A stretch of 64,000 nt of DNA, from positions 68,678,890 through 68,742,889 of the forward strand of contig NC_057725.1 of assembly GCF_004010195.1 (NCBI RefSeq). Reading direction: 5' to 3'. Source of the DNA: Chiloscyllium plagiosum (taxonomy: Eukaryota). Below the pieces are notes generated by a model that was not told the DNA's origin, did no database searches, and saw only the letters and a program-made list of their open reading frames with translations. Positions 14,601 to 51,600 of this stretch are shown piece by piece (within the stretch, counting starts at the first letter, position 1; every line of letters starts with the position of its first letter). A program made the position numbers and the translations under genes.

Positions 14601-17600
14601 AGTCCAGGGGCTAGGGAAAAGTGGTGTATTTACTGAAGATGGATGATTAAAGGAGTAAACAACTGGGGGAAATTAAGCCCAGAGAGAGAAAGAGAACTGC
14701 AGTTCGGCAGACAAAACGATGGATAATGGTAAGTCAGGGGGAAAGAAGAGCTGCTTCATTTTCTGTTTACTTCTAGTTTAATAGAATAGAGCAGCTTTAG
14801 CTTTACTTGCAGTTTAAAAAGTAGAGAAAGCGTTACTCTGCATCTAACCCCATGCTGTCTCTGTATTGAATGCAAAGAGTGATTTCGCTGAGCATTCTGG
14901 AAGAGGTCAGTACAGTGACAAGGAGTGGTAAGCCCCAAACATCACTTTAGAACATAGAACAGGAATAAAACATTACTGTAGTGTTCCATCCTTCCCTCCT
15001 CCTTTAACCAAAACAAAAGAGAAGAGAAGAGAGATTGAGAGAGACTGTTAGGAAGCTTGCTGTAGCCGAGAGGTAGATGGTCCGCTTGTAAGGATGCGTT
15101 GTAATTTAAGTGACCAGTTAGTGCATCTAGTTGGTATAAGTGCAGGCTTTGGTGAATATTGGGCTTCAGTGAATTGGGTAAGCAAGGTAAAGGCAATCTT
15201 TCTTTGGGTAAAGAGACAGAGATGGCAGCTAGGGCAATGTTACACGGTTCCTGCCAGATGGAGGAAATCAGGAAGCAGTCTAGTGTCCTCGACAATTATA
15301 TCTGCAGAAAGTGTGACCGGCTGCAGCTCCTCAGAGGTCACGTCGTTCAGTTGGACACACTGAGGAGCATTCAGGGGTGAAAGAGTGTGATAGACACTAG
15401 TTACAAGGAAATGGTCATACCAGAGATTCAGTCAGATAGATAGGTGACTGCCAGGAAAGGCAGGCAAGTAGTGCAGGAGTTGCCTGTGGCTATTCCCCTC
15501 TCTAACAGGGTATATCATTTTGGATACTGTTGTGGGGGAATAGCCTCTCAGGAGAGTATAACAGCAGCAGCCAGGCCTGTGGCAGCATCACAGCTGGCTC
15601 TGCTATAGAGCAGGGTCAGGCAAGATCCAAGTGAGTGATAGTGGTAGGAGACTCGCTAGTTAGGGGCATAGACAGGTACTTCCGTGGCTGCGATCGAGAC
15701 TCCAGGATGGTGTGTTGCCTGCCTGGTGCCAGGGTCAAGGATATCTCTGAACGGTTGCACGAAATTCTTAAGGGAGAGGTTGAGCAGCCAGAGATCGTGG
15801 TGCACATTGGTACCAACGGTATAGCTAGTTAGGAGGGATGGGGTCCTGCAGAGCAGAGCAAGTACGGGGAATTAGGAAATGGGCTGAAGAGCAGGACCTC
15901 AACAGTAGCAATCTCTGGGTTACTACCAGTGCCACGTGCTAGCGAGGAAGGAGTAAGAAGGTCGGACAGATGAATGGGTGGTTAAGGAGCTGGTGCAGGG
16001 GGCAGCGTTTCAGGTTCTTGGATCATTGGGACCTCTTCGGGGGCAGGGTGACCTGTACAAGGGGGATAGGCTGCACTTAAACTGGACAGGAAAATCCTCA
16101 CGGAGGCTTGCTAGTGCTATTGGGGAGGGTTTACACTAGAATGGCAGGAGATGGGGAACCAGAGCAGTAGATCAGCAAGTGGAGGAATAGAGGGGAAGGT
16201 AGGTGTTAAGACCAGTAAACCACAAAGAAAGGTCAGGCAGAAACAGGTAAATGAACACAATGGCACTAATGTGTTTAATTTCAATGCAAGGAGTATTATA
16301 GGTAAGGCAGATGAGCTCAGAGCCTGGATTAGTGCATGGGACTAGGATGTTCAGGCCACTATAAAGACTTGATTGAGAGGGGCGACAGGACTGGCTGCTC
16401 AATGTTCCAGGGCTTCGTCTTTTAAAGGAGACAGAGGGGAAGGTAAAAGAGGTGGAGGAGTTGCATTACTAATAAGAGACAATGTTACATCTGCACTCAG
16501 AGAGGACATACTGGAGGGTTCGTCCACTGAGGCAATATGCATAGAGCTCAAAAATAAGATGGGTGCAATCAATGATATAATTATGCTATAGGCCCCCCAA
16601 CAGCTGAGCTATAAAGGAATAAATACGTCGGCAGATTATGGAAAGGTGTAATAAAAACAGCGTTATCATAGTTGGTAACTATCTTCCCCAAGGCTAACTG
16701 GGGCTCCCTTACCGCAAGAGGCTTAGACAAGGTGGAATTTGATAAATGCATCCAAGTGGGTTTCTTGAAACAGTGAGAGAACAGCCCAACGAGAGGAGGG
16801 GTGCGACATGCTGCTCCTTTAACAAGGTTATGGTGTCCTTGTTTCCTTTTTCAGAGAGGCCCTAAAAGATACAGACCCCAAAAAGTCTAAGTTGAAGGAC
16901 TTTAGGGGGTCAATTTGATTTTGGCTAACAGATATTGCCTCAGGAAAAAGGCTTTTTTAAAGTTTAAAAATACACTTGTCCAATGAAAGGGGAGTGGCCA
17001 GTTCTCCCTGCTCAGTCTCTCTCTGGCTTGGTTTGGTTTTTGCAAAGTGGAGTTAAAAAGAACCTGGACCTCAAAGAAGCAGTCCATGCTGATCTCTCTC
17101 TGACTTCTCTCCTGTCAGAACCTGGGTTTCATTTTACCTTTTGTGCTAAGGGTTTTAATAGGGATTGTTGCAGGTACTGGGTACAGCATCATTAAGTTGG
17201 GATTATCTGTTGGGTTTTTGAATAGGTTAAGTTATTCTCTTTTGTTTGTGTTTCATTCAGTAATCTTGTAAATAAATTCTGTTTTGTTTAAAACTATGTA
17301 GTTTGACCAACTGCATCCCTCCTGGACTATCCACATTACACAGACTTAAAACAACTAGCAGGGTTAGGGTCTGGGCTACTTTCTTGAAATGCTTTGAGGG
17401 GGTTGACCTGGTCTGGTGCATAACAGTTTGGAGTCTCTTGGCTGGATTTTTTCTATAGTTCCAAATTGGGATTAGGGTTGTTGGACTCGAAGGCAGCGAG
17501 TGGTAGGTGCTGGTGTCTTTCATTCTGGGTGTTGAAATTGGTTGGTTTAAACAGTGTTTGGGATAGCAGTGGCTCTTTCAGTCACCAAGATAGTCCTGGG

Positions 17601-20600
17601 GGTGGAAGTAGTGACTTTGGGGGTTTTACAAAACATGATTAAGGTCAAGCTGCTGGAATTAGCAAACCAATTGGAGCTGGAGCTGCCTTCTTCCGTGAGG
17701 AAAGGAGAGATAATTACAGTAGTAGCTCAGCATCTACATTTGCTGGAAATGCCATCAGAATCTTTAGAGATGGCTAAAATTCAATTGAAAATGAAGTAGC
17801 TTGAGTTAGAGGCAAACGTCAAGGAAAGGGAAACGGATATGAAATAGTTTGAATTACGATTAAAAGCAGAGGAAAGAGACAGAGAGAGAGAGAGAGAGAG
17901 AGACACAGACACACACACAAATGGAGAAAAGGAGAGAGAGGGAGTTTGAACTTCTGAAATTGGCACTTAGACAGGAAGGTCAGCTTAAAAGGATGATGGT
18001 AAGCTTATTGAGGCAGAGTGAGGATGAGCAAACCCATAGCAGCCAAAGTCCTGGTGAGAAACTGTTTAAGTATATTCAAGCATTACCCAAATTTGATGAG
18101 AAGGATGTGGAAGATTGTTTCATCTCACTTGAAAACGAGGCTAAACAAATGCAGTTGCCAGTGACCATGTGTGTTTTGTTGATCCAAACAAAACTTGTTG
18201 ACAGAGTTAATGAGGGATTCGCATCACTATCGAAGGAGGTATCTGTGGGGCGTATGAGGTGATGAAGAAAGCCATCTTAAGTGCATATGAGTTTATGCCA
18301 GAAGCCTACAGACAACATTTCAGGAATCTAAGGAGGGTCCCTGGTCAAACCTACAGACAGTTTGAAAGGATCAAACAAAGTAATTTTGATAGGTGGGTAC
18401 GGGCATTAAAGATAGAGCAAACCAATGATGTTCTTAGACTACTATTTTGGAGGAGTTCAAAAATTCACTTCCTGAAGTAGTAAGAACTCGCGGAAAGGCA
18501 GAGAGTTAAAACAGTAAGATTAGCAGCTGAAATGGCTGAATTCATGAAGGATTGAAATTGGGGAAAAGAGAAAGCCTCACGTGGAAAGGGAGATGTAGAT
18601 GTCAGTGAAGATCATAAGGATAACTTACCACAAGGTGAAAAGGAAACCCTTGAAGGGGAAAGACAAGTTATAAAGCTTCAGTGTTTTTACTGCAATAAAG
18701 TAGGCCACATGAAATCACAGCAGTCTAGGGTGGGTTAGGAAAAGCACTAGGAAGTCAGATGTAGGAAAACAGGACAAGCCAGTGAATTTTGTTGGAATGG
18801 CAACGGAAAACACAGGAGAGGCTAGAAAGCTGCACTAGAATGTACAAGCTGGTCGGAAATGGGTTAAGGAGCAAGTGCCAGATCTTCTTAAACATATACC
18901 TGCAAAGGAAAAGTTTACTCACACAGGCCAAAAGCAGCAGGCAAAGAGGTTACAATATTAAGAGACACAGGACCCTGTCAATCTGTAATGCTGAAAGATG
19001 AGATGGGTACCTCCGAAGGACTGTTGCCAGAAAAAGTGCTTGTAATGGGAATTCACGGTCAGACAAGAAGCACTCAATTATGTAAAGTGAGGTTAGAAAG
19101 TCTAGTGAAGAATGGAGAAGTTGTGGTAGGAATACTGGACAAACTCTCAGCTCCAGGAATACAATTTGTCCTTGCTAATGATATAGCTGGTTCACAGGTA
19201 GGATTGTTGCTTAGCCAACGGAACCTCGGGCAACTGAACTACTACAAGATACACATCCTCGTTTTTTTTCTGACTGTGTGGTAACGAGGTCACAAAATCA
19301 CCAGTTGAAACAAAGATCAAAGAGTACAGATAAGAAAGCGGAAATGGAATTAGCAGAGACTATGTTTGATCAGGGTGGTGCATGAGCTACCAGTAGGGGG
19401 TCATTTAGGAGTGAGAAAAACTCAAGCTAAAATACGAAGCCATTTTTACTGGCCTGGATTGCACAAGGATATAGTTGAATTTTATTTGACATGTCATACA
19501 TGTCACGTAATTGGAAAACCACAGGCAGTAATAAAACCTTTCATATCTATTCCCACATTTGAGGAACCTTTTACAAGTCTTAATTGTTTGCTTAGGACCC
19601 CTACCTAAAACAAAAACTGGGCATCAGTATTTATTAACAATCATGGATGTGTTGACTAGATTTCTGGAGGCCCTTCCATTACGCAACATCACAGCTAAAA
19701 GGATTGTAGAGGCATTGCTCAAATTTGCACCAGATATTGGACTACCCACAGAGATACAATTAGATCAAGGGTTAAACTTCACATTGAAATCATGCAAAGA
19801 AGTTATAGACAGCTGAGGATTAAAACAATTCAAATCCACTGCGTATCATCCAGAGTTATAGAGAGTGCTAGAAAGGTGGCAGCAGACATTAAAGACCACA
19901 TTGAGGACTTATAATTAAGGCTATCCAGATGATTGGGAGAAAGGACTTCCCTTTGTACCTTCAGAGATGCACCAAATTTAGTCCATTTTAATTAGTTTTG
20001 GGGCAGGAAGTGAGAGAACTGCTAAAATTGATTAAGGAGAAATTGGTAAGTCAGAATTCAGAGGCCATATTGAGGTCTGTGTGTCAAATTTTCAGGAACG
20101 ATTAAATAGAGCAGGGGCGTTAGCTAGACATTTAAAAGTATCACAGCATACAATGAAACAGGAAACAGACAAGAACTCAAAAACACGAAATTTTGCTAAG
20201 TGTTACTTCCAGTGATAGGTGAACCTTTAAAAGCAACGTTTAGTGGACTTTGTCAAGCCGAAAGGAAATGGAGTGAGGTGAACTATTTGGTAAGGGCTCC
20301 AGACAGAAAGAAATCTCGTAGAGTGTGTTATGTGAATATGCTCAAAAGATATTTTGACAGGGAAGTAAAGCCAAAGGCGACTGTGTTATCAGTTACAACA
20401 GAGTGAAGACCCAAGTTCAGAGGATTCTGAATTGGACATTCCTCAGATTAAATTGGTCAATGAGGAAGTTGTCAAAAATTGGGATAAATTGAGTTACCTT
20501 CTAGAGAAAAATCAAAATGACCTAAAAGACTTATTACTATCACATGGAGAGATATGTGGAAATAAGCTGGCAAGTACTTACCTAATTATGCATGATGTAG

Positions 20601-23600
20601 ATATAGAAGATGCTGTTCCAATTAAGCAACATCCTTATAGTAATAACCCTCTAAAGTTGGCACAGGCTCAAAAGGAGAGTGAACACTGATGACATAGTCA
20701 AAGTGAGTTACAGCGGCAGGAGCTCACCCATAGTAATGGTGTCAAAACCAGATGGTACCCAATGGGATTATCACAAAGTTAATACATTTACAAAGACTGA
20801 TGAATTTGGTTTAACCAATTGCATCCCTCCTGGAATATCTGCATAAAACAACTCACAAAGTTAGGGTCTGGGCTACTTTCTTAAGATGTTTTGATAGGTC
20901 TGACCTGGTCCAGAACAGGGGCCATACTGGACCTCGTATTGGCTAATGAGTCTGGCTAGGTGACTGACCTCTCAGTGGGAGAGCAATCGGAAACAGTGAT
21001 CACCACTCCTTAAGTTTTAAGATAGCTATGAACAAGGATAAGTCAGGACCTTGCGGGAAAGTACTAAATCAGGAGAGGGCAAATTATGTCAGGCAGGAGC
21101 TGTGGAGTGTTAATTCGGAGGAGCTGTTATCAAGCAAGTCCACATTTGACAGATGGAATTGTTTAAAGCCCTGCTGGGGACAGTTCAAGATCAGCATGCT
21201 CTAGTAAGGAGGAAGGACAAAGATGGCAAGATAAGGGATCCTTGGATAATGAGGGAGGTTGTGAATTTAAAATGAAAAAAAAGCAGCACATTTAAGGTTT
21301 AGGAAGCTAAAATCAGACCGAATCCTGTGAGGAATATAAAGATTAGGGGTTTAGATAGGGTTGACTGTGGGAACCTTTTTCCACGTATGGAGTCAGCTAT
21401 TACGAGGGGGCATAACTTTAAATTAAGGGGTGGTGGGTATAGGACAGATGTTAGGGATAGGTTCCCTTTACTCAGCGAGTCGTGAGTTCATGGAATGCCC
21501 TGCCAGTAGCAGTGGTGGACTCTCCCTCTTTATGGGCATTTAAGCGGGCATTGGATAGGCATATGGAGGATAGTGGGCTAGTGTAGGTTAGGTGGGCTTG
21601 GATCGGCGCAACTTCGAGGGCCAAAGGGCCTGTACTGCGCTGTATTCTTCTATGTTCTATGTTCTAAAACAGGAAAGTACTCAAGCAGGGAATTAGGAGA
21701 GCAAGATGGGGCCATGAAATGACCTTGGCAAGTAGGTTTAAACAGAATCCCAAGGCATTCTATCCATTCATTAAAAACAAAATGATAACTAGGGAGAAGG
21801 TAGAACCACTCAAGGATAATGGAGGGAACTTGTGCTTGGAGGGACAGGATGTGGGCAAGATCCTAACTGAGCACTTTGCATCGGTATTCACCCAGGAGCA
21901 GGATATGGAGGATAGTGAGATTTGTGTGGAGCATGCTAATACGCTCAGGCATTTTGAGATCAAGAAAGAAGTGGTGTTGGGTTTCTTGAAGAGCATTAAG
22001 GTGGATAAGTCTCAAGGATCCAAAGGTTTCTACCCCAGGTCACTGAGAGGCACAAGAGAAGAGATTTCTGGGGCTTTGGCCAAGATCTTTGTATCCTTGC
22101 TAGCCACTGGAGGTGCCCCGGTGAACTGGCGAGTAGCTAATGTTGTTCCTCTGTTCAAGAAGGGAAATAGGGATAATCCAGGAAACTTTAGACTAGTGAG
22201 TCTCAGATCAGTGATTGGGCAGCTATTGGAGAGAATTCTTAGGGATAAGATTTACGTGCATTTAGAAAAGCTTGGCCTAATTATGCACAGCTAGCATGGC
22301 TTTGTGCAGGACAGGTCATGTCTTACTTATTTTATTGAATTTTTTGAGGTGATAGTGAAGGTGATGGCTGAGGGTAGAACAGCAGATGTTGTTTATATAG
22401 GTTTTCATAAGACATTCAACAAGTTTCGCATGGTAGCTCATCCAGAAGATTAGGATGCATGAGATCCACAGTGACTTGGCCATGTGGATTCAGAATTAGC
22501 TTGCCATAGAAGATAGAGGGTAGTGGTGGAAGGCTGTTTTTCAGGCTGGAGGTCTGCGACTAGTGGTGTTCTGCAGGGATCCATACTGTTTGTTGCCATA
22601 TTACCTTTGCTGTTTGTTGGGTGAAAAGGTACGCAGATTAGCAAGTTTGCAGACAATACAAAGATTGGTGGAGTTGTGGATAGCGTAGAAGGTCGTCAAA
22701 GGATACAGCAGGACAGATCAGTTGCAGAAATGAGCAGAGAAGTGGCAAGTGAAGTTTAATCTGGGTAAGTGTGAGGTGCTGCACTTTGGGAGATCAAATG
22801 TTATGGAAAAGTATACAGTTAATGGCAGAATTCTGAACAGCATTGATGTACATAAGGATCTTGGGTTCAAGTCCATAGCTCCCTGAAAGTGGCCACACAA
22901 GCAGATCGCCTTTATTGTTTGAGGAGTTGAGTACGAGAGTGTCATGTTGCAGCTTTATAAGACTTTGGTTAGGCCACACTTAAAGAGTATTGGTTCAAAG
23001 GCTGCCATAGTACAGGAAGGATATGGAGGCTTGAGAGAGCGCAGAAGAGGTTTACCCCCAGGATGCTGCCTGGTTTAGGGGGTATGATCTATGAAAGAAA
23101 GGCTAGAAAAACTCCAGTTGTTTTCTCTTGAGTGGTGGAGGCTAAGGGGCAACTTGATAAATGTCTATAAAATTATGAGATACATAGATAGGGTTGACAG
23201 TCAGAACTTTTTTTCCCCCCCCAGAGTTGAAATGTCTAAAATTAGGGGGCATGCATTTATTTTGGCTGGGGGGGGTTCAAAGGAGATAAGAGGGACAGGC
23301 CTTTTACACAGTGTGGTAGGAGTCTGGAATGCACTGCCAGGGTGGTGGTGGGAGGCAGATACAATAAGGGCATTTAAGGGATTTTTACAAAAACACATGA
23401 AAATGCAGGGATATGGACCAAGAGCGTGCAGAAGGGATTAGTTTCATTTGGCACCATGTTGAAGGGCCCATTCCTGCGCTGTACAGTTCTACAAATGATT
23501 TTTTTTGAAACTGAATAACAGCATCTGGAGATGGTGTTTTTGAGAAGGATGAAGAACACGGAGCGTCAGGGCAAAGAGAGATCACATCACATCACTGGTT

Positions 23601-26600
23601 ATACCAGGAGGGGGTCACAGTGCTGGTAGCGGTGGTTTGGGTGGGGTGTGAATTTCAGTTTCTTCAAAATACCAAGAGGAATGAATGATAGTAATCTTAA
23701 AAAACACTTTTTTAAAAAAATTACTTATAGTGCAGAAACAGGCCCTTCGGCCCAACAAGTCCACACTGACCCGCCAAAGCACAACCCACCCAGACCCATT
23801 CCCCTACACCTAACACGACGGGCAATTTAGCATGGCCAATTCACCTAACCTGCACATTTTTGGATGGTGGGAGGAAACCGGATCACCCGGAGGAAACCCA
23901 CGCAGACACGGGGAGAATATGCAAACTCCACACAGAGTCGCCTAGATAGGAATTGAACCCAGGTCTCTGGCGCTGTGAGGCAGCAATGCTAAGTTGAAAC
24001 TTTATTGCTGGAACAGCACAGCAGGTCAGGCAGCATCCAGAGAACAGGAGATTCGACGTTTCGGGCACAGGCCCTTCTTCAGGAAGAAGGGCCTGTGCCC
24101 GAAACGTCGAATCTCCTGTTCTCTGGATGCTGCCTGACCTGCTGTGCTGTTCCAGCAATAAAGTTTCAACTTTGATCTCCAGCATCTGCAGACCTCACTT
24201 TCTCCTCGAAGGCAGCAATGCTAACCACTGTGCCACCGTGCCGCCCACCAAATGATATTAGAAAGGAAAGAACAGTCACTGCAGATTAATTAACAGCCAT
24301 AGTGGATAAATCCAAATGAACGGGCCCAATAAACTGGTTTTAGTTTTTGTGTTCAATGATTTAAAATGTGACCTGAATTAGTCAAGAGGAGCAAACAGAA
24401 TTCTGAGACTATCACTATAGCAGTGTCACCTCGTATACAAACTTGCCCAAGCACATTCAATGCTGCACCCTCCTCCCGGGAAGAGCTGGAAGCAACAGCA
24501 CTGGCTGGATATGGAGAAACAAGAGTCATGCTTAGTCTTACCTCTTCAAACACACGATGCAGTGATGGTTCCTCCCCAATTTTCTCCATTTCAGTGCACT
24601 GCAAGTCAAAGTAGGAAACATAATTGACAGGTCAGGAACAGTTATGACAGATGCATATTAACCTATGAAATACTGAAGTTCATCTTAGTGAAGAGAATTG
24701 TCAAGACTCCGAATGGTTAGGGGTCACACTGTCTGTCAGCAGCCAGGGAAAACTGATGGAAAGCAGCACTAGACTGACAGAATAGCTAGAATATCAAACT
24801 CAAACTAATCAAGGGGTTCGGGATTGTTTACATATAAAATAATAGCTGTTTGGGAGTGAATTACATACTGGAATCTAATCGAGGGACTTATATACAGAAT
24901 AACAGATACTGAGAAGTAAGTTATACTGGAATCTAATTGAGGGGCTTATAACAGATACCCAGGAACGAGAAGACTGGAATCTACTTGGGAGGGTGAAATT
25001 TCTGGATGGTTTATACATAGAATATCAGATACTGGGAGTGAGTTAATACTGTGCACATCAGTACAAGAGCTGAATTATAAGACTGGCACTTACCTCATTT
25101 TCTTTCATCTCCTGATAGCTCTGTAACAAAAAGATACAGAGGAAGTGAGGGTGGGACCGTAACATGAGGAGCACATGATACAGAGAAAGAGAGAGAGAAG
25201 GGGACTTCAGAGTGGCAGGGCCTTAGAAAGAAATTGAAAATAAAATCCAGCACGAGATGCATACTTTTTAAATCGGAGGAAAAGGACACAACCTCTGATA
25301 CCTACATGTAACCTGGCTCTGACATTCCAATTCTGATCAACTATTTCGTGGCTGTGTCCGTAATGCCAAAGTAAAAGTGCGGTTGAAGGCGGAGAGCTAC
25401 AGTGTGGGCTCAGAGTATCCACAGCCAAATTGCCCTGTACAGGTCCAACACAAGGAGTGTCGGTCCTTGCCTCAGTAAGATGCTGGCTCCTGGCATGTAC
25501 AGGTTAACAGGTTCTAGCTCCTCTCTACTAACAGTACCAGCCTCCAAGTCTGTTGTGACAGACACCGGTGCATACATCCCAGTTGTAAATTACCATGTGT
25601 CCATCCCAGACTCCAACCTGTCCCCACAATGCCTTGACGTGAAGTGCATTACCACCCACCCCACCATGCCACGAGCCCCCCGAATCCGCAGCACGATCAC
25701 CACACCCCTTTCCTCCCCACTCCGGTGCCTCAGTGTGCAATCATTCATAACACCAGTACGACGGCAGCTACCTGTAGTACTTTGCCATGTACAATGGTCC
25801 CGATGGTTCCTGCACACAAGCGAGGTGTTAGGCCTTTAAACAGACCCCACTTTCCATCAATGCTCACAATGTGCTTGGCTGCAAGACAAATGCAGAAAGT
25901 ATCAAATCCATCAAGTTTGATCTTCTCAAATGTAGGAACAGTGAAATGAAAAAAAAACTGGAAAAACACTGTAGTGTCCTACATCCAACCAGCATTATCG
26001 ATGACCTTCCCTCTTAATATCTAGGCTTGGGTTGATAGATGGCAAGTAACATTTGTGTCATACAGGTAATAGTCAATGACCATCTCCAATGATAAATATA
26101 CATATTGGCCCTTGACATTCAATAGCACTAACACATCCAGGACAAAGCCACTCATCTGCACTGGTACGCTACATAGTACCTTCAATTAGATTAGATTGGA
26201 GAAATTTGGGGGGAGTGGGGGGTGGTGGTGGTGGTGAGACTGTTTGAGGGTTACTCCACACCTGACTCATTTAAAAGCTAGTTTATCAGAGTTCATAACC
26301 GGCATATTCCTGAGGATGAAAGGTAAAGATGGCAAGATTTTTGAACTTGGATGACAAGAGAGGTTGAAATGTTAGTCATTAAAAAAAGGAAGCATTTGTA
26401 AGGTTTAGAAAATTGAAAAGGCCTTTGAACAGTACAAAGGAAGCAGAAAAGAACTTCAGCAAGAAATGATGAGGGCTAGGAGGGGCCATGAAATGTGCTT
26501 AGCACGTAGAATTAAGGAGAATACCAAGGCATTTTATATGTTTTCAGAAGCAAGAGGGCAGCTAGGGAAAGGAGGAAACTTACGCAAGGAGCCAGAGGAA

Positions 26601-29073
26601 ATGAGTGCACTCATTCATGGATATGTTGCATTGGTATTCACCAAGGAGAAGGACACAGATGGTGTTAAATTAGAAATGGGTATGCTGTTATTCTGGGGCA
26701 CTTTGACATTAAGGAGGACATGATGTTGGTGTCTTCAAAAACATTAAGGTAGATAAGTTTCCAGGGCCTGATAGGATCTGAGGGAGGCAAGGTAGGAGAT
26801 TGCTGAGGCCTTGACAGAGATCTTTGTATCCTTTTTAGCCAGAGGCAATATTGCAGAAGACTGGAGAATTGTCGATGTTGTTCTTTTGTTTAAGAAAGGC
26901 AACAGGGATAATGCAGGAAATTATAGGCCAGTGTCAGGGAAGTTATTGGAAAAGATTCATAGGGACAGCGTTTACTTGCATTTTGAGAAGAATGGACTTA
27001 TTAGGGACAAAAAGTGTGGCACTGGAAAAGCACAGCAGCTCAGGCAGCATCAGAGGAGGATGACAGTCGACATTTTGAGCATAAGCTCTTCATCAGTCCT
27101 CACTTCCTCCTTATTAGAGACAGACAGCATGGTTTTGTGTGGGGTAGGCCCTGTATCACAAACTTGACTGGGTTTTTTGAGGAAGTGACAAAAATATTTC
27201 ATGAGTGGAGGGCAGTGAATGTTGCACTTGTCTAAAGCAGAAAGATATTCTGGTCTTGAAGAGCGAAATTGCAAGAAAATCCCTGGTGTGTTGGCAAATT
27301 GGACATAAAATTGGCTTGCTCACAGAAGACAGAGGGTAGTTGGGGATGGGTGTTTTTTCTGACTTGAGGTCTATGACCATGATATCCCGCAAGGGTCAGT
27401 GCTGGGACCTCTGTTGTTTGCAGTGCATATAAATGATTTGGATGAAAATGTAGATGACCTGATTAGTAATTTTACAGATGACAAGGAAATCGGTGGAGTT
27501 GAGGATAGTGAGGCAGGTTATCAAAGGATACAACAGGATATAAACCAGGATAGAGTCAGGGTTGTACAGCATGGAAACAGATCACTTGGTTCAACACATC
27601 TGCCACAAACAAATGCCCTAAACTGATCTAGTCCCATTTGACAGCATTTGGCCTATATCGCTCTAAAGCCTTCCTATTCACATGCATCCAGATGGCTTTT
27701 AAATGTTGTAACTGTATTTGCCACCACCACCTCCTCTGGCAGCCTGTCCCATACACACACCCACCCTCTGCCTAAGTTGGAAAGATGGGCGGACAAATGG
27801 CGGATGGAGTTTAATCTGGACAAATGTGAGGTCATACATTTTGGTCAAATGCAAAAAGTAATGTACAGGAAATAGCAAGACCCTGAGGAGCATTGATATA
27901 CAAATGAATGTTCAGATACAAGTTCAGAGTTCCCCAAATGTGGCGATGCAAATGGTAAAGACAGCATACAGCATGCTGGTCTTCATCGTTCGGGAAACTG
28001 AGTATAAAAGTTGATAAGTGACATTGCAGCTGTATAAACCTTTATTTAGGCCACATTTAGACTATTATGTGCAGTTCTGATCACATTGTGTCAGCTGGTG
28101 GCTTTGGAGAGGGTGCAAAAGAGCTTTATCAGGCTGTTGCCAAGATTAGAATGTATTAGCTACAAGGAGAGGTTAGACAAACTTGGACTATATTCGCGAG
28201 AGTTGGAGGCTGAGGGGCAACCTGATAGAAATATATAAAATTATGAGAGATGTGGATAGATGGATAGACAGTGTCTTTGTCACAGGGTGAAAATATCAAA
28301 TATAGACTTAAGGTGAGATGGGGAAAGGTTTAAAGGAAATGTGCGAGGAATGTGTTTTGTTTTACACAGCGTGTGGTAAGTGCCAAGAACAAGCTGACAG
28401 GAGAGGTGGTAGAAGCAGATAGGATAGCAAGGTTTAAGAAGCAGAGAGATGAACAGTCAGATGGGATTAGTGTAGAATGGTCGACAGACATGGGGAGCTG
28501 AAGGGCCACTTCATGTGCTGTACTGTTCAATGTTGTGTGTTCAACATTCCCTCCCTTCACCACTGACAAACAGTGGCAACAGTGACTTAGGTACAGAGTA
28601 AGGATTTCTCCACTCTTTTAAACTGAAAGGAGAGCTTCCTCAACAATGTCCCCGTCGAACACTACCCAGAACAGGAACAAGTGTTAGATTAAAGCTCCCT
28701 ATCTCTCTCAAACTGAAAAAGTAATGCCTGCTATACTTTTTTTTAAACCTGGAGGCAAAGCTCCCTCAACACTGTCCCAAACACTGCCAGGACCAAGGAC
28801 ATTATGAAGTTAGATACAGAGTAATGTTCCCGTTGCCCTGCGCCTGTCAAACACTCCAAAGCAGTACTACAGTATAATATGAACGGCAGTGACTCTGTGG
28901 TGAAGAATGTGTTTGCTGAGTGCGTGTGGGCACTTGATGGACAGCAATCTCAGGAACGAACATTGACCTGCATCACTTCAGTACGCACCATATGTGAAGA
29001 GTCCGGGCAGCTGGAGAACTGGTCGTCTGAAGATGTTCCGACCCATCACTGGTGCAATGGGTTCATGGCCAAC
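5569..29073 (-). CDS. MTCH2: Mitochondrial carrier homolog 2 (SLC25A50), multi-exon CDS; 11 internal exons visible, first and last exons not found
   Basis: Exons 29073-28989, 25878-25772, 25120-25094, 24598-24542, 14469-14412, 14318-14267, 13007-12948, 11849-11750, 7504-7457, 6856-6789 and 5644-5569 are all AG/GT bounded and join in frame: [52 protein letters not shown]...REMIARSTATVVTHPFHVITLRCMVQFIGRETKY...[31 protein letters not shown]...SWIDCW. Recognised from memory of vertebrate MTCH2; REMIARS..THPFH favours MTCH2 over MTCH1. Confidence 0.95.
5995..6235 (+). repeat. Degenerate minisatellite (gagctttactctgtatctaacc...tttgatggggacag); related copies at 28570-28870 (-), 43795-43862 (-) and about 14830-14870
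   Basis: Repeated ctttactctgtatctaacc and tttgatggggaca motifs. Confidence 0.65.
6348..6665 (+). mobile_element. HE1-type V-SINE
   Basis: tRNA-like head with A box (tggcacagtgg) and B box (ggttcaatacc), central domain gggtttcctccgggtgctccggtttcctcccaca, LINE-like tail with (aatct)n. Confidence 0.92.
6789..6856 (-). CDS. MTCH2: MTCH2 exon 11
   Basis: ccttcacag|TTC...TGTGG|gtgagt; [23 protein letters not shown]. Confidence 0.95.
7457..7504 (-). CDS. MTCH2: MTCH2 exon 10
   Basis: gttctag|GGC...GGG|gtgagt; GSQIGELRSYSQAVTG. Confidence 0.93.
7900..10785 (+). mobile_element. CR1 LINE ORF2 (APE endonuclease + RT), disrupted
   Basis: DVVAISETW, DLVLGSEPGQV, VPEDWRIGNVVPL, QHGFVKGRSCLTNL, KFADDTK, RPHLEYCVQFW; frameshifts and stops. 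Confidence 0.92.
11750..11849 (-). CDS. MTCH2: MTCH2 exon 9
   Basis: tctttgcag|T...CAG|gtaggt; GLFPRLLGDVISLWLCNMLAYLINTYALEPPSQ. Confidence 0.95.
11870..12070 (+). repeat. Degenerate ~38-bp tandem repeat (about 5 units)
   Basis: Recurrent agattcacac...cacactgggctcagaga. Confidence 0.65.
12101..12259. mobile_element. Penelope-derived inverted-repeat insertion (contains gap)
   Basis: atggaaatgtgttgctggaaaagcgcag mirrored by ctgcgcttttccagcaacacatttccat; flanked by direct repeat agactacagcggag. Confidence 0.75.
12948..13007 (-). CDS. MTCH2: MTCH2 exon 8
   Basis: ctttacag|T...TTTGC|gtaagt; GLFGSIVTIYEEEGFFGFFA. Confidence 0.95.
13878..14170 (+). mobile_element. HE1-type V-SINE
   Basis: Same head, central domain and (aatct)n tail as 6348-6665. 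Confidence 0.92.
14267..14318 (-). CDS. MTCH2: MTCH2 exon 7
   Basis: cccttgcag|TA...TACAG|gtcagt; VITLRCMVQFIGRETKYS. Confidence 0.95.
14412..14469 (-). CDS. MTCH2: MTCH2 exon 6
   Basis: gtgtctag|ACG...CACG|gtaagt; TMREMIARSTATVVTHPFH. Confidence 0.95.
16802..20917 (+). mobile_element. Gmr1-like Gypsy LTR retrotransposon, decayed, with RT/RNaseH largely deleted
   Basis: 5' LTR TG..CA 16802-17425; gag with CFYCNKVGH knuckle (~18680), protease LRDTG (~18960), integrase HELPVGGHLG...CHTC plus core (19366-19950), start of RT PIKQHPY (~20620); partial 3' LTR ~20805-20917; GGGG duplication on both flanks. Confidence 0.88.
21343..21665 (+). mobile_element. Young 5'-truncated CR1 3' end nested in an older CR1
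   Basis: ORF2 C-terminus (TRGHNFKLRGG...WNALP) and (tatgttc)n tail interrupting the host ORF2. Confidence 0.85.
23720..24248 (-). mobile_element. HE1-type V-SINE interrupted by a Penelope-derived palindrome
   Basis: Reverse complement of the HE1 tail, centre and head; head split at 23993-24209. Confidence 0.88.
23993..24209. mobile_element. Penelope-derived palindromic insertion with hammerhead-like core
   Basis: Perfect ~88-bp inverted repeat centred near 24082; 15-bp target duplication aggcagcaatgctaa (23978-23992 / 24210-24224). Confidence 0.85.
24542..24598 (-). CDS. MTCH2: MTCH2 exon 5
   Basis: gacttgcag|TGC...GAG|gtaaga; CTEMEKIGEEPSLHRVFEE. Confidence 0.85.
24790..25060 (+). repeat. 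Degenerate minisatellite (aataacagatac..ggagtgagtta..ctggaatctaatcgagggg)
   Basis: About four decayed units. Confidence 0.65.
25094..25120 (-). CDS. MTCH2: MTCH2 exon 4 (27-nt microexon)
   Basis: tttttgttacag|AGC...GAG|gtaagt; SYQEMKENE. Confidence 0.88.
25772..25878 (-). CDS. MTCH2: MTCH2 exon 3
   Basis: cttgcag|CC...CTACAG|gtagct; [36 protein letters not shown]. Confidence 0.95.
26190..28540 (+). mobile_element. Decayed CR1 LINE ORF2 with nested small insertions (~27010-27110 Penelope-like end; ~27548-27770 antisense CR1-like 3' end)
   Basis: EDWRIVDVVLLFKKGNRDNAGNYRPVS, QHGFVWGRPCITNL, LGPLLFAVHINDLD; the 27 kb insert is flanked by cttattag(g/a)gaca. Confidence 0.85.
28989..29073 (-). 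CDS. MTCH2: MTCH2 exon 2
   Basis: ctctag|GTTGGC...ACATATG|gtgcgt; [28 protein letters not shown]. Confidence 0.93.
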
Positions 29074-30070: not shown

Positions 30071-30104
<34 letters not shown>

Positions 30105-32975: not shown

Positions 32976-33010
32976 CCAGGACAACACAGAGTAGCAACAC
33001 AGAGGAGAAC

Positions 33011-33559
33011 ATGAGGAGGATGAGGACGAGCAGATTCTTAGTGATGGTTCTACCTGCAGTCATCTGGTTATGCCTGTGCCCCACAGCTGAACAGCGTCCT
33101 GGTGCAACCCGACAGCGGCGAGGCCTCTTTGACATGGCCATGACTCTGTGGTGTTACCGCTCCAAGCTGGGAATCTCCCTCCTCAAGCTACACAACTATG
33201 GCTGCTATTGTGGGACAGGCGGTTCGAGTAGGCCTGTCGATCAGGTGGACCAGTGCTGTTTCCTCCATGATTGCTGCTACTACCACACTAGAGTGATATT
33301 GGGCTGTCACAGCCAGGTCAAGTGGAGCACGTACAACTTCACATGCAAGAAGGCACAGACAGAGTGCAAGGGCCAGACTGTGTGCACCAGGATGTCATGT
33401 GAATGTGACAGGGCCTTTGCAGAGTGTTTGTCCCGGGCAAAACCCAGCGACATGCATTACTTCTACAAGACGCGATTCTGCAAGGAGAACAAATCCGTCT
33501 GCCCAGCCACCTTCCCCAACTCCTCCACCATCATGGACTGGATCAAACAAGGCAGTTAA
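33011..33559 (+). CDS. Secreted phospholipase A2, group X-like, single coding exon (182 aa)
   Basis: Hydrophobic signal peptide, propeptide ending RQRR, Ca2+ loop YGCYCGTGG, catalytic CCFLHDCCY (His48/Asp49/Tyr52), CECD (Asp99), 16 Cys in the mature chain; uninterrupted ORF. Confidence 0.93.
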
Positions 33560-33863: not shown

Positions 33864-34094
33864 AGTTACTTGAATGTGTTAAGTGTACCAGTATCGTCCA
33901 GCTGGTTCAGGTCATCAGCTCTGCTTAATGTCACGGACTCATACACAGCAGGTCACTTAGTCTGACTGCTCCTCTCAAGCTCTTTTACAGGTTTCTACAA
34001 AACCCTCCTTCATTCTTCCAAATTCCAGTGAAAATACTCGTTAATGATTCTGTCTCTCTTCATACATTGATTCCTGAGATGGCCGGACTGGACT

Positions 34095-34700: not shown

Positions 34701-35032
34701 ATATCAAACAGAACAAAAGAGACATTCACTAGGCTTTTCAATAAACTCAAAAATAACATGATTATAGGAGACAATCATACTCTTCAAATAACACAGATGA
34801 TCAAAAATTTCAGTCCCACTACATCCCCTTAATAATCCAAGATGGAGGACGGGGAAAATTTCTGGCTGCAACAGGCTACTCCTTTTTTTTGAGATATTTG
34901 GAGGTGATTTCCTCGAATTCGAGGAGCAGCAATTACTGTTTTATATGCTGTCGCATTGTTTTGCAACTTTTGGAGAAAAAAAAGTCAAAACAATAGCACA
35001 GTTAAAAGGGAGAAGAACAGACAACGCAGTGC

Positions 35033-35728
35033 AGGGAGCGCGCGAGCGAGAGAGGGAGCGCGCGAGCGAGAGAGGGAGCGCGCGAGCGAGAGAGGGAGCG
35101 CGCGAGCGAGAGAGGGAGCGCGCGAGCGAGAGAGGGAGCGCGCGAGCGAGAGAGGGAGCGCGCGAGCGAGAGAGGGAGCGCGCGAGCGAGAGAGGGAGCG
35201 CGCGAGCGAGAGAGGGAGCGCGCGAGCGAGAGAGGGAGCGCGCGAGCGAGAGAGGGAGCGCGCGAGCGAGAGAGGGAGCGCGCGAGCGAGAGAGGGAGCG
35301 CGCGAGCGAGAGAGGGAGCGCGCGAGCGAGAGAGGGAGCGCGCGAGCGAGAGAGGGAGCGCGCGAGCGAGAGAGGGAGCGCGCGAGCGAGAGAGGGAGCG
35401 CGCGAGCGAGAGAGGGAGCGCGCGAGCGAGAGAGGGAGCGCGCGAGCGAGAGAGGGAGCGCGCGAGCGAGAGAGGGAGCGCGCGAGCGAGAGAGGGAGCG
35501 CGCGAGCGAGAGAGGGAGCGCGCGAGCGAGAGAGGGAGCGCGCGAGCGAGAGAGGGAGCGCGCGAGCGAGAGAGGGAGCGCGCGAGCGAGAGAGGGAGCG
35601 CGCGAGCGAGAGAGGGAGCGCGCGAGCGAGAGAGGGAGCGCGCGAGCGAGAGAGGGAGCGCGCGAGCGAGAGAGGGAGCGCGCGAGCGAGAGAGGGAGCG
35701 CGCGAGCGAGAGAGCGCGCGAGCGAGAG
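35033..35728 (+). repeat. Perfect 20-bp tandem repeat (CGCGAGCGAGAGAGGGAGCG), about 34 copies
   Basis: Identical 60-nt lines from 35041 to 35700. Confidence 0.97.
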
Positions 35729-38147: not shown

Positions 38148-38452
38148 GATTAGATTTAGATTACATTACAGTGTGGAAACAGGCCCTTCGGCCCAACAAG
38201 TCCACACCGACCCGCCGAAGCGAAACCCACCCATACCCCTACATTTACCCCTTACCTAACACTATGGGCAATTTAGCATGGCCAATTCACCTAACCCTGC
38301 ACATCTTTGGACTGTGGGAGGAAACCGGAGCACCCGGAGGAAACCCACGCAGACACGTGAGTCAGTCAGTCAGTCGCCTGAGGCGGGAATTGAACCCGGG
38401 TCTCAGGCGCTGTGAGGCAGCAGTGCTAACCACTGTGCCACCGTGCCGCCCA
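38148..38452 (-). mobile_element. HE1-type V-SINE inserted in CR1 ORF2
   Basis: Reverse complement of a full HE1 unit; host CR1 frame resumes at SSESLEECKG. Confidence 0.92.
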
Positions 38453-42869: not shown

Positions 42870-43255
42870 TTGAGGAGTAGGAGAATGATCAGAGAGTAGG
42901 GCCAATCAGGGATAGTGCAGGGAACTTCTGTCTGGAGTCTGAAGAGATAGGGGAAGCCCTAAATGAGGTTTTTGCTTCAGTATTGACTGGAGAGAGGGAC
43001 CTTGTTGATAGAACACTGTGGACCAGATTAATAGGCTTGAACAGATTAATGTTAAAAAAGTGGATGTGCTAAAAGTGAAATGTGCTGGTTGCACCTCTGG
43101 CGATGATCTTTGCAGCTTCACTCTCCATGGAAGTAGTATTGGCTGATTGGAGGGAGGTGAATGTTGATCCTCTGTCCAAGCAAGGGAATAGGTAAATCCC
43201 TGGGAATTACAGACCAGTCAGTCTTATGTCTGTTGTAAGCAAAATCCTGGAGTTC
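42870..43255 (+). mobile_element. CR1 ORF2 fragment
   Basis: VGPIRDSAGNF, LNEVFASV, GNYRPVSL remnants. Confidence 0.75.
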
Positions 43256-45643: not shown

Positions 45644-48600
45644 CTAAAGGACAGACCGGACGTTCCGTGCTTTCACCGAGTGCAGTGACTGTTTGGTCTC
45701 GTCCCACAGGCAGATGGTGGACAATTGGTGTTTGAGGGTTTCCACCAGCGAGTTGCGTTTGATGCTCCTCTGCAGTTTCCTCCCACAGTCTTGATGTTGC
45801 ACTTCCCGGGATTTCCTGTGAGTTTGACGTCCAGGCCTCCATGCAGCTCCCGCCATGGTGGGATTGAGCAATAGCTTCTTACTCAGCACTAGCTTATTGG
45901 TTTGATGGATTCCTACTGTCCTCCCATTCACTCCTTTCAGCACGGTCAGTTTGCCTGCTCTCACAGGCAGCTTTAACGCTCTCTCACACCTTGCTGTGGT
46001 CGGGCTGTCACTCAGCAATGTTCGCTTTGCCTTAAGGGAGCGTGTGAGATTGGAGAGGCCCTGTTCAATATTCCTCATGTCTCTGTCAAGAAATCAAATT
46101 TCTGTGACTATAGTATTCAGCACCAGACCCTGTTTCCACAAGTGAAAGATGAAAGTGTTTGGTGTTGGGCTCCACTTTGCAAGATGTAGCTGAGAAGACA
46201 AGCTAGGGAGCAATCACTAAAAACTGGTGGAAAAAGGCAGAGAAACTGATGCAAAATGTTCCTGGAATTCTCGCCTTTATCTCAACGGCTTCAATTATTC
46301 TTTTATGGCAAAACTTGCTCAGGAAGGCAGCAGGAAACACCACTTCCCTCACTAGAAATGTTTTCTATGGAGAGCTGTTAACCTTAGGCTCAGCTGAAAA
46401 TGTCCAAGCTGAGATTGACTGGGCTTTTCCCCTCCGGGAGGGGCTGAGGATCCAAGGGAACTAGAATGAGTTAAGGAATGGCTCAGCAAGGATATAATTG
46501 AATGTGGAACAGACTGAAGGGGCTGAATGGCCTTCTCCTACCAGACACCTGGTTTAAGGTGCAAAGGCCTTTGCCAATTGAGGGGATCAAGTGTGTCTCT
46601 CTCAGGAACTGTGCCCACCCCAGATTGCCATCCATAGATACCATCTGCCATGGCTGGCTCCATTCTTGATTCTCTTCTGTGATTTACAAGTGTTTAAATT
46701 AGAGTGGTGCTGGAAAAGCACAGCAGTTCAGGCAGCATCCAAGGAGCAGTAAAATCAACGTTTCGGGCAAAAGCCCTTCATCAGGAATACAGGCAGAGAG
46801 CCTGAAGCGTGGAGAGATAAGCTAGAGGAGGGTGGGGTGGGGAGAAAGTAGCATAGAGTACAATAGGTGAGTGGGGGAGGGGATGNNNNNNNNNNNNNNN
46901 NNNNNNNNNNNNNNNNNNNNNNNNNNNNNNNNNNNNNNNNNNNNNNNNNNNNNNNNNNNNNNNNNNNNNNNNNNNNNNNNNNNNNNNNNNNNNNNNNNNN
47001 NNNNNNNNNNNNNNNNNNNNNNNNNNNNNNNNNNNNNNNNNNNNNNNNNNNNNNNNNNNNNNNNNNNNNACGGATACAATAAATGATATGAGTGGATGTG
47101 TAGGTAAAACTTTGATGGATGTGGAAAGCTCCTTTGGGGCCTTGGATGGAGGTGAGGGAGGAGGTGTGGGCGCAGGTTTTACAGTTCCTGCGGTGGCAGG
47201 GGGAGGTGCCAGGATGGGAGGGTGGGTCGTAGGGGGGCGTGGACCTGACCAGGTAGTCACGGAGGGAACGGTCTTTGCGGAAGGCGGAAAGGTGTGGGGA
47301 GGGAAATATATCCCTGGTGGTGGTGTCTGTTTGGAGGTGGCGGAAATGTCGGCGGATGGTTTGGTTTATGCGAAGGTTGGTAGGGTGGAAGGTGTGCACC
47401 AGGGGCGTTCTGTCCTTGTTGCGGTTGGAGGGGTTGGGTCTGAGGGCGGAGGTGCGGGATGTGGACGAGATGCGTTGGAGGGCATCTTTAACCAAGTGGG
47501 AAGGGAAATTGCGGTCTCTAAAGAAGGAGGCCATCTGGTATGTTCTGTGGTGGAACTGGTCCTCCTGGGAGCAGATACGGCAGAGGAATTGGGAATAGGG
47601 GATGGCATTTTTGCAGGAGGTAGGGTGGGAAGTGGTGTAATCCAGGTTGCTGTGGGAGTCGGTGGGTTTGTAAAAAATGTCGATGTCAAGTCGGTCGTCA
47701 TTAATGGAGATGGAGAGGTCCAGGAAGGGGAGGGAGGTGTCAGAGATGGTCTGGGTAAATTTAAGGTCAGGTTAGAATGTGCTGGTGAAGTTGATGAATT
47801 GTTCAACCTCCTCGCGGGAGCACGAGGTGGCGCCAATGCAGTCATCAGTGTAGCGGAGGAAGAGGTGGGGAGTGGGCGCCAATGCAGTCATCAATGTAGC
47901 AGAGGAGCACCAAGTGGATGAAAGTACTTACTCTTCCTGCTCCAGCACGGTGTCCATGCCGACCAGTGAGGCTGTTGCCATTGTGAAGGTGCCCACAGGC
48001 CTTTGTCGTCGTCCTCTGCCATCCTGAATCCTTGGTTGGCTGCCAACACACTGTGCCCCTTCAAGTGACTCACTGACGTCAGAAGATGCAGCCGGATTTG
48101 TTCTGTTTGCACAGGACAACCAAGTTTATTCAAAGGTAAAAGTGGACCTGAGAGGAGAGTGTCTCAGGACAGACATCCACGCAAGGTCCTGGTGAAGCAG
48201 ACCTGATCAAGTTCATCCTCTGATACCCAGGCATCGTTTGATGGACTGTGTCAGAAGCTAACACTTCCCTCTGTTCTAAACAGATTTCACTGCAAAAGAC
48301 ACTCCAAAACTAACTAATCAGGGATTAACTAATTAATAAATTAAGTCGAGATGGCTGGACAGGTGATGTGCTGTAGCTGCATGATGTGGGAGCTGGCTGA
48401 TCCCATTGCGAACGAGAGTGGTCACATCTGTAACAAGTGTTGGTTGCTGGAGGAACTTCAACTCAGGATTAATGAGCTGGAATCTGAGCGGCAAACACTG
48501 GCACACCCGAAATACCTGGACGCTGAATTCCAGGAGGCAGTCACACTACCTGAAATTCAGTCAGTGGCCAGGGACAGCAGGGTGTGACTGCAAGTGATGC

Positions 48601-51600
48601 AGCATCCCTGTGTAAATGAGGAACAGAGCTGGACGGAGAGTGAGCCAGTTGACCACAACATTGTGGTACAGGAGGCTATTCAAGAGGGGGGAGCAAAAAG
48701 ACAAGTAGTAGTTGTAGGGCATTCTTTAATTGAAGGAATAGACAGTATCCTTTGTAAACAGGATTGAGAGTCAACATGGTATGTTGCCTGCCAGTGCCAG
48801 GATGTGGGGCATATCTGACCAGCTTGAAAGGATATTTGAAAGGAAGAGGGAGGATCCAGTTGTTGTGGTCCACATCGGGACAAATGATATAAGCAAGACT
48901 TGGAAAGAGGACCTGTTTAGGGATTATCAGGAACTAGGGATCAAATTAAAGAAAAGTCCTCAAGGATTATAATCTCCGGATTACTGTCCGAGCCATGTCC
49001 CAATCGGCATAGGGACGTGAGAATAAGGGAAGTAAACACGTGGCTAAAAGAATAGTGCGGGAAAGAAGGATTCCTTTGTGTAGGGCATTGGCATCAGTAT
49101 TGGAATAGGAGGCATCTGTACCATTGGGATAGTCTCCACGTGGAGCCAGCTGGGACTCGTGGTCTAGCGAAAAGAATAAATAGGCTGGTCAACAGGATTT
49201 TACATTAGGAAGGGAAGGGTAAAACTCCAAGGAGTATAATGGCCAATGGGAAGCAAAGCTGCAGGTTAACATCTGTGGGGATGAATTCAACTAAATTGAA
49301 AAATATAAAAAAACAAGGAGACCTCGGAAGAGGTTATTAAAGTCTCCAGCGCACAAAATAGGACAGTGTTTGGAAAGGGTTAGGAATCAAACATCAAACA
49401 CACTGGGTAAACGAATAATGATGAGAAGAGGGAGGGTCAATACAGGACTGAGGGTGTTGTGTCTGAATGCGCGCAATATATGAAATAAGGTAAATGAGAT
49501 TGTGGCGCACAGCGAAATTGGAAGGTATGATGTGGCGGGCATCACGGAGACGTGGCTGCAAGGGGGTCAAGACTTTGAGCTAAATATCCAAGGATATCCA
49601 TCTTATCAAAAAGACAGGCAGGTGGACAGAGGGGGTGGGGTTGCCTTGTTTGTAAGGAATGAAAGTAAATCAATAGCGATAAATGAAATAGGGTCAGGTG
49701 ATGTAGAATCTGTGTGGGTAGAGTTGAGGAACTGCAAAGGTTAAAAAAGCATAATGGGAGTTATCTACGGGCCTCTAAATAGTCAGATTTTGGGGTGTAA
49801 GATACATCAGGAGATAGAAAATGCATGTCAGAAAGGCAAGGTTACAGTGATCATGGAGGATTTCAAGATGCAGGTGGACTGGAAAAGTCAGGTTGATAGT
49901 GAATCGCAAGAAAAGGAATTTGTGAAATGTCTACAAGAGAGCTTTTTGGAGCAGCTTGTGATGGAGCCCACTAGGTGTGATGATGATGCTCCTTTGACAG
50001 GGTTGTGTTGTCCTTGGCTTTGCTCAAATGTGTTTTATGAGACAAGGTTCCGAAATGTCTGGCTTGATCTACTTGAAGAAGCTTTTAAATTTTAAAGAAA
50101 ACACTTGTACAATGAAAGGGAAGTGGCCAGTTCTCCCAGCTCAGTTTGTATCTGGTTTGGTTTGGTTTGGTTTTAGCAGTCTGGTTGTTCAGAGCAAGCA
50201 GTCAGTCAATTTTGAGGCTGCTGGTCAAAGAAACAGCTACATGGAAGAAGATGTTCCATGCTGAATCTCTGACATCTCTCCTGTAAGACCCTGTGTTTGA
50301 TTTTACCTTTATTTTGCAAAGGGGTGTTTATGGAGATTGTTACAAGTATTTGGAACTGTATTGGGATAGTCTGTTCAGTTTTCAAATAGGTGAAGTTATT
50401 CTATATTGTGTTCTCTTTTGTTTGTGTTTAATTTGGTAAGTTTGCAAATAAATTCTGCTTTGATTAAAACCAAGTGGTTGGGCCAGCTGTATCACTCCTG
50501 GAATATCTATTATATACCTGCTTAAAACAATTCGCAAAGTTAGGGACCGGGCTACTTGCTTGAAATGTTTTGAGGGGGTCTGGCCTAGTCGATAACACTA
50601 GGGAACAGGCAATTCTGGATTTAGTGTGGTGCAATGAGGCAGACTTGCTAAGGGAGCTTAAGGTGAAGGAACCCTTAGGAGGCAGTGATCATAGTATGAT
50701 AGAATTAACTCTGCAATTTGAGACTGAGAAAGTGGAATCAGATATAACGGCATTATAGTTGAATAAAGGCAATGACAGAGACATGAGGGAGGAGCTGAGC
50801 AGAATTAATTGGGAGAGGAGCCTAGCAGGAAAGACAGTGGAACAGCAATGGCAAGAATTTCTGGGAGTAATTCGAGAGTCACAGCAAAGATTCATATTGA
50901 GGAAAAAGAAGCACACTAAAGGGAGAATGAATCAATGTGGTTGACCAGGGAAGTCAGGGACAGCATAAAAGCAAAAGAGAAAGCAAGTAATGTAGTGAAG
51001 ACCAGTGGGAAGCTAGAGGATTGGGAAGCCTACAAAGACTAACAGAGAAAAACAAAGAAAGAAATAAGGAGAGAGATGATTAAACATGAGGGTAAGCTAG
51101 CCGGTAATATTAGGAAAGATTGCAAGAGTTTCTTTAGATATATATAAAGAGCAAAAGTGGACATTGGGCTGCTGGACAGTGATGCTGGAGAAGTAGTAAT
51201 GGGGAACAAAGTGGAACTGAATAATTACTTTGCATCAGTCTTCATGGTGGAAGACACAAGTAATATCCCAAAAATTCAAGAGAGTTGGGGGTCAGCGATG
51301 AGTACGGTGGCCATTACCAAGAAGAAGGTGCTAGAAAAAAACTGAAAGGTCTGCAAGTGGATAAATCATCTGGATCAGATGGGCTACACCCTAGAGTTCT
51401 GAAGACGATAGCTGAAGAGATTGTGGAGGTTCTAGTAGTGATCTTTCAGGTATCACTGGAGTCAGGAAGGGTCCCGAGGACTGGAAAATGGCTAATGTAA
51501 TCCCCCTGTTTAAGAAGGGAGCAAGGCAAAAGTCACAAAATTATAGGCCCATTAGCCTGACCTCAGAAGTTGGTAAGATTTTGGTGTTCATTGTGAAGGA

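Follow-up and report, generated by a model that had tools for sequence, protein, structure and literature searches.

The window analysed here, a 64,000-nucleotide (nt) stretch of the Chiloscyllium plagiosum genome (contig NC_057725.1), contains a Gypsy retrotransposon, hereafter element 1, and a related solo long terminal repeat (LTR), which interrupt two different long interspersed elements (LINEs) at almost the same codon of their endonuclease-coding segment. The host LINEs are ones that we take to be of the CR1 clade. The evidence supports two insertion events that are real and independent, and we found that element 1 belongs to the Gmr1-like clade, of which it is a new though unremarkable representative, a type twice nested in CR1 in this window. 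Integration was probably untargeted, with the proximity of the two sites a coincidence or at most the product of a weak hot spot; genuine targeting of CR1 we consider unlikely, though far from negligible. As it stands, the picture is the ordinary one of a decayed Gmr1-like family nested in LINEs.

Two independent insertions 7 nt apart in CR1

The features of the two insertions are listed in Table 1. Host LINE 1 reads S-P-T-R-G-G up to element 1 and resumes with A-I-L-D-L, and host LINE 2 reads E-P-T-R up to the solo LTR and resumes with E-Q-A-I-L-D-L. On the coordinates of a third CR1 copy in the window, the right-hand junction of element 1 projects to position 1390 and that of the solo LTR to 1383, and each insert is co-oriented with its host. 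The coordinates, motifs and junctions that the sequence-only reading had given for both sites, their spacing of 7 nt, the sense orientation of both inserts and the differing target duplications (GGGG and CTAGG) were all borne out, as was its claim that the events are independent. The two hosts show 66-69% identity in local alignments, with a Kimura two-parameter divergence (K2P) of 0.50 that is typical of old CR1 families here. Both align to a window CR1 copy that carries PF14529/PF03372, and PF14529 is also matched in host 2 (E 0.015), the ORF2 of these LINEs having an apurinic/apyrimidinic-type (APE) endonuclease followed by reverse transcriptase (RT). Because the hosts are unrelated (K ~0.5) and each insert has its own duplication, we conclude that the events were independent. 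An assembly artefact was ruled out, there being no N at any of the four junctions and separate duplications at each insert.

A potential explanation that would account for position and orientation together is that one ancestral CR1+LTR junction was copied, or gene-converted, into a second CR1. However, the hosts differ right up to the junction on both sides, as much as old CR1 families in this window generally do, the cut position and the duplication are separate for each insert, and the sense AATAAA in the LTR should truncate a CR1 transcript. We regard such copying as scarcely credible.

The PTR..LDL site is kept, and the motif conserved at the protein level, in eight CR1 copies of the window, six of which are empty, and three of these six empty sites lie in a subfamily of CR1 that is younger (K 0.07-0.13). 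A single copy that was duplicated may account for the sites at 59493 and 60137 (K 0.07), and a local duplication with inversion was seen within young CR1 at 59467-60081. A separate CR1 fragment (56880-57136, minus strand) starts at its own PTR..LDL motif, its break coinciding with the two LTR insertions (n=1).

A third LTR-like insert, whose sequence shows no relation to the first LTR family, lies ~1,350 nt further on in the CR1 that holds the solo LTR and serves as an internal control; it splits the RT motif of host 2 between GVPQGSV and LGP, in sense. As a side observation, all three of the recognised LTR inserts of the window are in CR1, the third likewise at a conserved CR1 motif and in sense.

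Table 1. Coordinates of the two insertions, their hosts and neighbouring features in the window
Feature	Position	Strand	Remarks
Gmr1-like Gypsy element (element 1)	16802-20917	+	TG at 16802, CA at 20917
5' LTR of element 1	16802..17425	+	TG...CA; TAACA-type end motif common to relatives
Primer-binding site, decayed	17428..17448	+	Resembles the site directly 3' of the 5' LTR in Gmr1-like relatives
gag, broken	17942..18740	+	SCAN-like capsid domain ~18298-18444; zinc knuckle 18679-18717
Protease region, broken	18950..19209	+	ILRDTG; 64% match to relative P0007 residues 1-75
Integrase, broken	19357..20403	+	Pfam H2C2, rve, Integrase_p58_C
RT N-terminal stub	20411..20804	+	Matches full-length relative P0018 residues 1003-1142
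3' LTR remnant (3' end)	20805..20917	+	~113 nt; 83% identical to 5' LTR end
Target duplication GGGG	left 16798-16801, right 20918-20921	+	Flanks element 1
Solo LTR	49976..50597	+	TG 49976, CA 50597; related to 5' LTR of element 1
Target duplication CTAGG	left 49971-49975, right 50598-50602	+	Flanks solo LTR
Host CR1 LINE 1	15146..23500	+	Endonuclease domain split by element 1
Host CR1 LINE 2	48360..54130	+	Split at PTR by solo LTR, in RT by second LTR-like insert
Third LTR-like insert	51940..53348	+	TG...CA, AATAAA, imperfect GTAG/GTTAG duplication, contains N gap
MTCH2-like coding exon	14412..14469	-	Downstream of element 1
Further MTCH2-like exons	near 5569, 6789, 7457, 11848, 12982, 14307, 25117, 25834, 29070	-	
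SCARNA14	941-1073	-	Downstream of MTCH2-like gene, same strand

A dead Gmr1-like element and its relatives

Element 1 has the hallmarks of an LTR retrotransposon, with TG...CA LTRs and a primer-binding site (presumably for tRNA-Pro), and the two inserts carry target duplications of 4 and 5 nt. Its genes are in the order gag, protease (PR), integrase (IN) and RT. In this decayed copy the SCAN-like domain of gag (PF02023) scores a Pfam E of only 0.004, which falls short of the curated threshold, and the gag region aligns with SCAN-bearing relatives. The integrase is matched by the H2C2 finger (E 2e-16), the rve core (E 3e-7) and the Integrase_p58_C end (E 4e-6), and ~88 codons are absent just upstream of it when relative P0007 is taken as reference. 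Downstream of the integrase ~130 codons of RT remain, and the rest of RT-RNase H has been lost in a deletion that starts early in RT and leaves just the final ~113 nt of the 3' LTR. With numerous stops and frameshifts in addition, this copy is dead. Over those 113 nt its LTR pair differs by K 0.195, or ~0.10 per LTR since insertion.

Because it combines a SCAN-like gag, a zinc knuckle, PR and IN upstream of RT, element 1 is, as judged from its sequence, a Gmr1-like Ty3/Gypsy element. Its integrase is of the Gypsy type and most similar to proteins with the Gmr1 gene order. The earlier description of 16802-20917 as a Gypsy element holds as to group and coordinates, with the refinement that IN precedes RT, unlike in an ordinary Gypsy. 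In the literature, the gag-PR-IN-RT order is described as the defining trait of Gmr1-like Gypsy elements (PMC3587641, PMC8220671, 10.1101/2025.03.03.638093). Members of the clade share with element 1 the SCAN-like gag, zinc knuckle, PR and upstream IN (PMC3587641, 10.1101/2025.03.03.638093), whereas element 1 is broken and deleted; a target preference for Gmr1 was not found in the accessible literature, and the flanks of the relatives are mixed.

The sequence-only reading had also assigned both inserts to one LTR family. The close kinship that this implies was upheld, the solo LTR and the 5' LTR having 79% identity in an alignment of 562 columns that is interrupted by several indels of 12-41 nt. 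Unity of the family is less secure, as the solo LTR lies at K 0.24-0.27 from the LTRs of element 1 (K 0.25 from the 5' LTR), against K 0.195 within element 1, and the duplication lengths are unlike (4 nt for element 1, 5 nt for the solo LTR). The two LTRs are close relatives, perhaps from sister subfamilies. A BLAST search for the LTR family within the window returned these two loci and none beyond them. An exact 25-nt LTR motif had no match in any of the viral, metagenome and prokaryote collections, and a 23-nt motif had none in viral contigs. The read-through CR1-LTR peptide at the solo junction, used as a probe for other junctions, gave no candidates; a HMMER search with the same peptide gave six matches, and the four that were inspected were unrelated low-complexity proteins.

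Among 109 candidates we identified 29 relatives, the best being the Scyliorhinus torazame protein XP_072348726.1 (71%). Full-length relatives that were scanned have the order SCAN-IN-RT-RNase H (RH), and the LTR end and primer-site motif of element 1 match those of relatives. An alignment of the integrases of 12 integrase-bearing relatives, used as a search profile, found 181 coding stretches in metagenomes and one viral locus, and a single integrase piece searched in viral contigs found one weak locus that is not Gmr1-like. We examined the best 80 of the 181 metagenome stretches, which make up 79 loci, together with the viral locus and the earlier weak one. When six CR1 protein pieces were compared with these 81 loci, none of the loci gave a match at E <= 1e-3, most of them being collapsed contigs that lack true flanks. 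All eight defined LTR junctions of relatives have unrelated flanks, three of the eight being from one family (L068, L069, L075) and the junction of L016 being the least certain. Locus L078 carries an open reading frame (ORF) that we take to be the end of a LINE ORF2, ~2.4 kb from the integrase piece and with no LTR junction. We conclude that, on present sequences, CR1 targeting does not appear to be clade-wide, and that distant relatives say little about this LTR family. Four of the loci (L005, L006, L008 and L010) lie on one 35.6-kb contig as a head-to-tail Gmr1-like array with a ~5.8-kb period and 96-97% identity, which may be genuine or may have arisen in assembly.

Coincidence or targeting

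The reading that we favour is one of ordinary nesting. An old Gmr1-like lineage (SCAN-type gag, PR-IN-RT-RH) would have been active in the shark genome ~0.10 substitutions per site ago, and its DDE integrase joined the TG...CA ends to chromosomal DNA via a 4-5-nt staggered cut, as the ends and duplications show. In one copy RT-RNase H and the greater part of the 3' LTR may afterwards have been deleted, and the other may have been reduced to a solo LTR via LTR-LTR recombination. Both copies would lie in CR1 since CR1 makes up at least one third of the local DNA and nested insertions are tolerated; for comparison, CR1 is reported to form 21.8% of the whale shark genome (PMC8455134). The 7-nt proximity would be a coincidence, with at most some help from a local hot spot, weak and comparable to those seen in human nested transposable elements (TEs), and the co-orientation would be due in part to the removal of retroelements inserted in the sense orientation of a host gene. 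Among human nested TEs, hot spots and orientation bias are described as common, also where LTR elements have entered LINEs, for which particular positions and orientations are favoured, and 82% of clustered insertion types depart from background; the human hot spots differ from the present case in comprising hundreds of events, mostly at short degenerate motifs, whereas here there are two events in hosts that are 66-69% alike (PMC2836564).

The intron that houses element 1 and host 1 belongs to a minus-strand MTCH2-like gene. Retroelements in sense to the host gene are purged from introns as an established general pattern, and in a hand-made list seven of the eight CR1 pieces that fall inside the coding span of the MTCH2-like gene have the antisense orientation. 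The co-orientation of element 1 with host 1 is therefore partly expected, because the intron disfavours retroelements in gene sense. No gene beyond 29070 able to set the orientation of the solo LTR was recognised, none of the 107 ORFs scanned there being informative.

To gauge how unlikely the coincidence is, we used a chance model in which CR1 makes up 32% of 56,334 usable bases, a projection that undercounts CR1. The CR1 copies of the window hold nine nested insertions of all kinds, at positions (partly hand-estimated) from 1383 to 3363. These form 36 pairs, for which 0.16 would be expected to lie within 7 nt (P for any, 15%), and another nested pair, a short interspersed element (SINE) and a CR1 fragment, lies 31 nt apart. 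Same-family coincidences in 64-kb windows are estimated at 0.1, 1.6 and 10 for families of 5,000, 20,000 and 50,000 copies, assuming a 3.5-Gb genome. The coincidence is strong for a single pair and modest once the possible pairs are counted.

Several observations nevertheless weigh against ordinary nesting. Under the 32% model, two insertions placed at random would land in separate CR1 copies and no more than 7 projected nt from each other with P = 4.4e-4, and the sole same-lineage LTR pair of the window is the closest of the 36 pairs; from that P for that pair, a likelihood ratio of several hundred favours targeting. Both copies of the LTR family in the window are within CR1, and two of the five older CR1 copies that retain the site are occupied. 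Intron bias does not clearly extend to the solo LTR, because beyond 29070 only seven of 12 CR1 pieces (again from a hand-made list) are on the plus strand. A base may have been lost from what was once a 5-nt duplication at element 1, leaving 4 nt, and the relatives are distant (31-65% protein identity), are from other hosts and for the most part have no true flanks, so they do not test the shark LTR family.

The anatomy, the independence and the 7-nt offset of the inserts and the improbability of the single pair are observed, and any preference for the site is an inference. In the form that we would entertain, with considerable reserve, a shark Gmr1-like lineage, across sister subfamilies, would prefer a ~10-nt window of the CR1 endonuclease, in sense, via a host tether. 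The mechanism would be that a host protein on the conserved CR1 endonuclease segment (the L-D-L codons just downstream) brings in the integration complex, which would mean a ~10-nt window and a preferred orientation and would make the element a hyperparasite of CR1. Two independent sense events so close together in such divergent hosts (P 1.2e-4 for a random pair with both inserts in sense) point this way, and a window instead of one base, with unlike targets, fits tethering better than direct readout. The occupancy of the older sites is consistent with it, as the three empty sites in the younger CR1 subfamily may postdate the LTRs. With priors of 3e-4 to 3e-3 for narrow targeting of a family, which are our own judgement, and a targeted likelihood of 0.3, the posterior for targeting is 0.08-0.64. 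Ty3 is a tethered LTR element that integrates beside its tether. Tethering as in Tf1, an LTR element that provides a precedent, would likewise result in a narrow site window with no common target sequence (PMC3706591); the targets of Tf1 and Ty3 differ, however, in being promoters or tRNA genes with known host tethers, none of which was identified here.

Against tethering stand the sample of two, the distant relatives that are not in CR1, and the third LTR in host 2, which sits elsewhere. A Pfam search of the integrase end and linker at E <= 1 for an extra targeting domain, such as a chromodomain, returned Integrase_p58_C only, as in the relatives, although short motifs would escape such a search; no tether was found. 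SCAN zinc-finger proteins, the obvious partner of a SCAN-type capsid, are described as occurring mostly in amniotes, and a SCAN-SCAN tether is thus not supported for sharks (10.1101/2025.03.03.638093). No report of Gmr1 or Gypsy targeting of CR1 was found among the papers listed in the literature searched, outside which most subscription papers and Repbase Reports lie, and the accessible parts of PMC2836005, PMC12440569 and PMC4131045 hold no Gmr1 target data. We therefore regard tethered targeting as rather doubtful.

A second mode of targeting, in which the integrase directly recognises the CR1 motif (compare Dada transposons and R2/Tx1-type LINEs), would be compatible with the protein-level conservation of the motif in the eight copies. 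It would also be compatible with words of 6-10 nt that the last 25 nt of the 5' LTR (17401-17425) share with all eight CR1 sites, just downstream of the insertion, the longest being 10 nt, with the CR1 copy at 57136-; this finding is post hoc, and by background P is 0.21 for a 6-nt word and 0.06 for a 7-nt word. However, the solo and 3' LTR ends resemble the CR1 sites weakly (mostly 4-6 nt) and the end motif is common to distant relatives, so that it appears to be inherited. The cuts are 7-8 nt apart and not at one fixed base (n=2), and when aligned in duplication register the two targets, whose duplicated bases and flanks differ, have neither common sequence nor symmetry. A palindromic target was accordingly ruled out, and so was a hairpin, as all six empty sites fold no better than shuffles (z -1.0 to +1.1). 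Target motifs of LTR elements are palindromic as a rule, and within a family >95% of the insertions have duplications of a single length (PMC3276498). Direct recognition is unlikely because the targets and the duplication lengths are unlike, the integrase is ordinary and the distant relatives are untargeted; we consider it very improbable, and tethering would be the better fit if targeting occurs.

Nearly all descriptions of strict repeat targeting concern non-LTR elements or Dada transposons (PMC3706591, PMC4640811). R2, the Tx1 clade, Utopia and Dada share with a targeted shark element the safe-harbour logic of insertion into multicopy DNA, including transposons (PMC4640811, PMC3706591); they are non-LTR or DNA transposons with a fixed cut, whereas the shark cuts are 7 nt apart in unlike sequences. 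Nested plant LTR retrotransposons are similar in that nesting is non-random and more often by Gypsy families, but they prefer the 3' untranslated regions of LTR elements and avoid coding sequence, whereas the site here is a LINE coding motif (PMC6911290). Were targeting true, an LTR retrotransposon of an animal would here be directed at a coding motif within a different transposon, which would be new: an integrase-based element parasitising and disabling the dominant LINE of the genome, one mobile element knocking out another. It would also point to a CR1-binding host protein in sharks, and chimeric CR1/LTR consensus sequences would be likely in shark repeat libraries.

Other features of the window

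The MTCH2-like gene (5569-29070, minus strand) has ~11 coding exons and matches MTCH2 in the PDB (E 3e-5); its first exon was looked for in the window and not found. On the opposite strand, at 33011-33559 (plus strand), is an intact single-exon ORF resembling secretory phospholipase A2 (PF00068, E 1e-25) with a signal-peptide-like start, which is possibly a retrogene. A 20-bp GC-rich tandem array (35033-35726; 34.7 copies, 99% identity) lies at the 5' end of a long CR1 and forms the sole CpG-rich kilobase of the window.

Short inverted-repeat elements were seen at 12102-12256, 23992-24206, 27006-27104, 46694-46842, 60361-60618 and 62926-63056, one with a 90-nt perfect palindrome and one with a 16-nt duplication. 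Their ends are in common with those of a 1-kb RT-like ORF (46755-47771, minus strand) that has no Pfam match and is presumably Penelope-like, and the SINEs of the window we take to be HE1-like.

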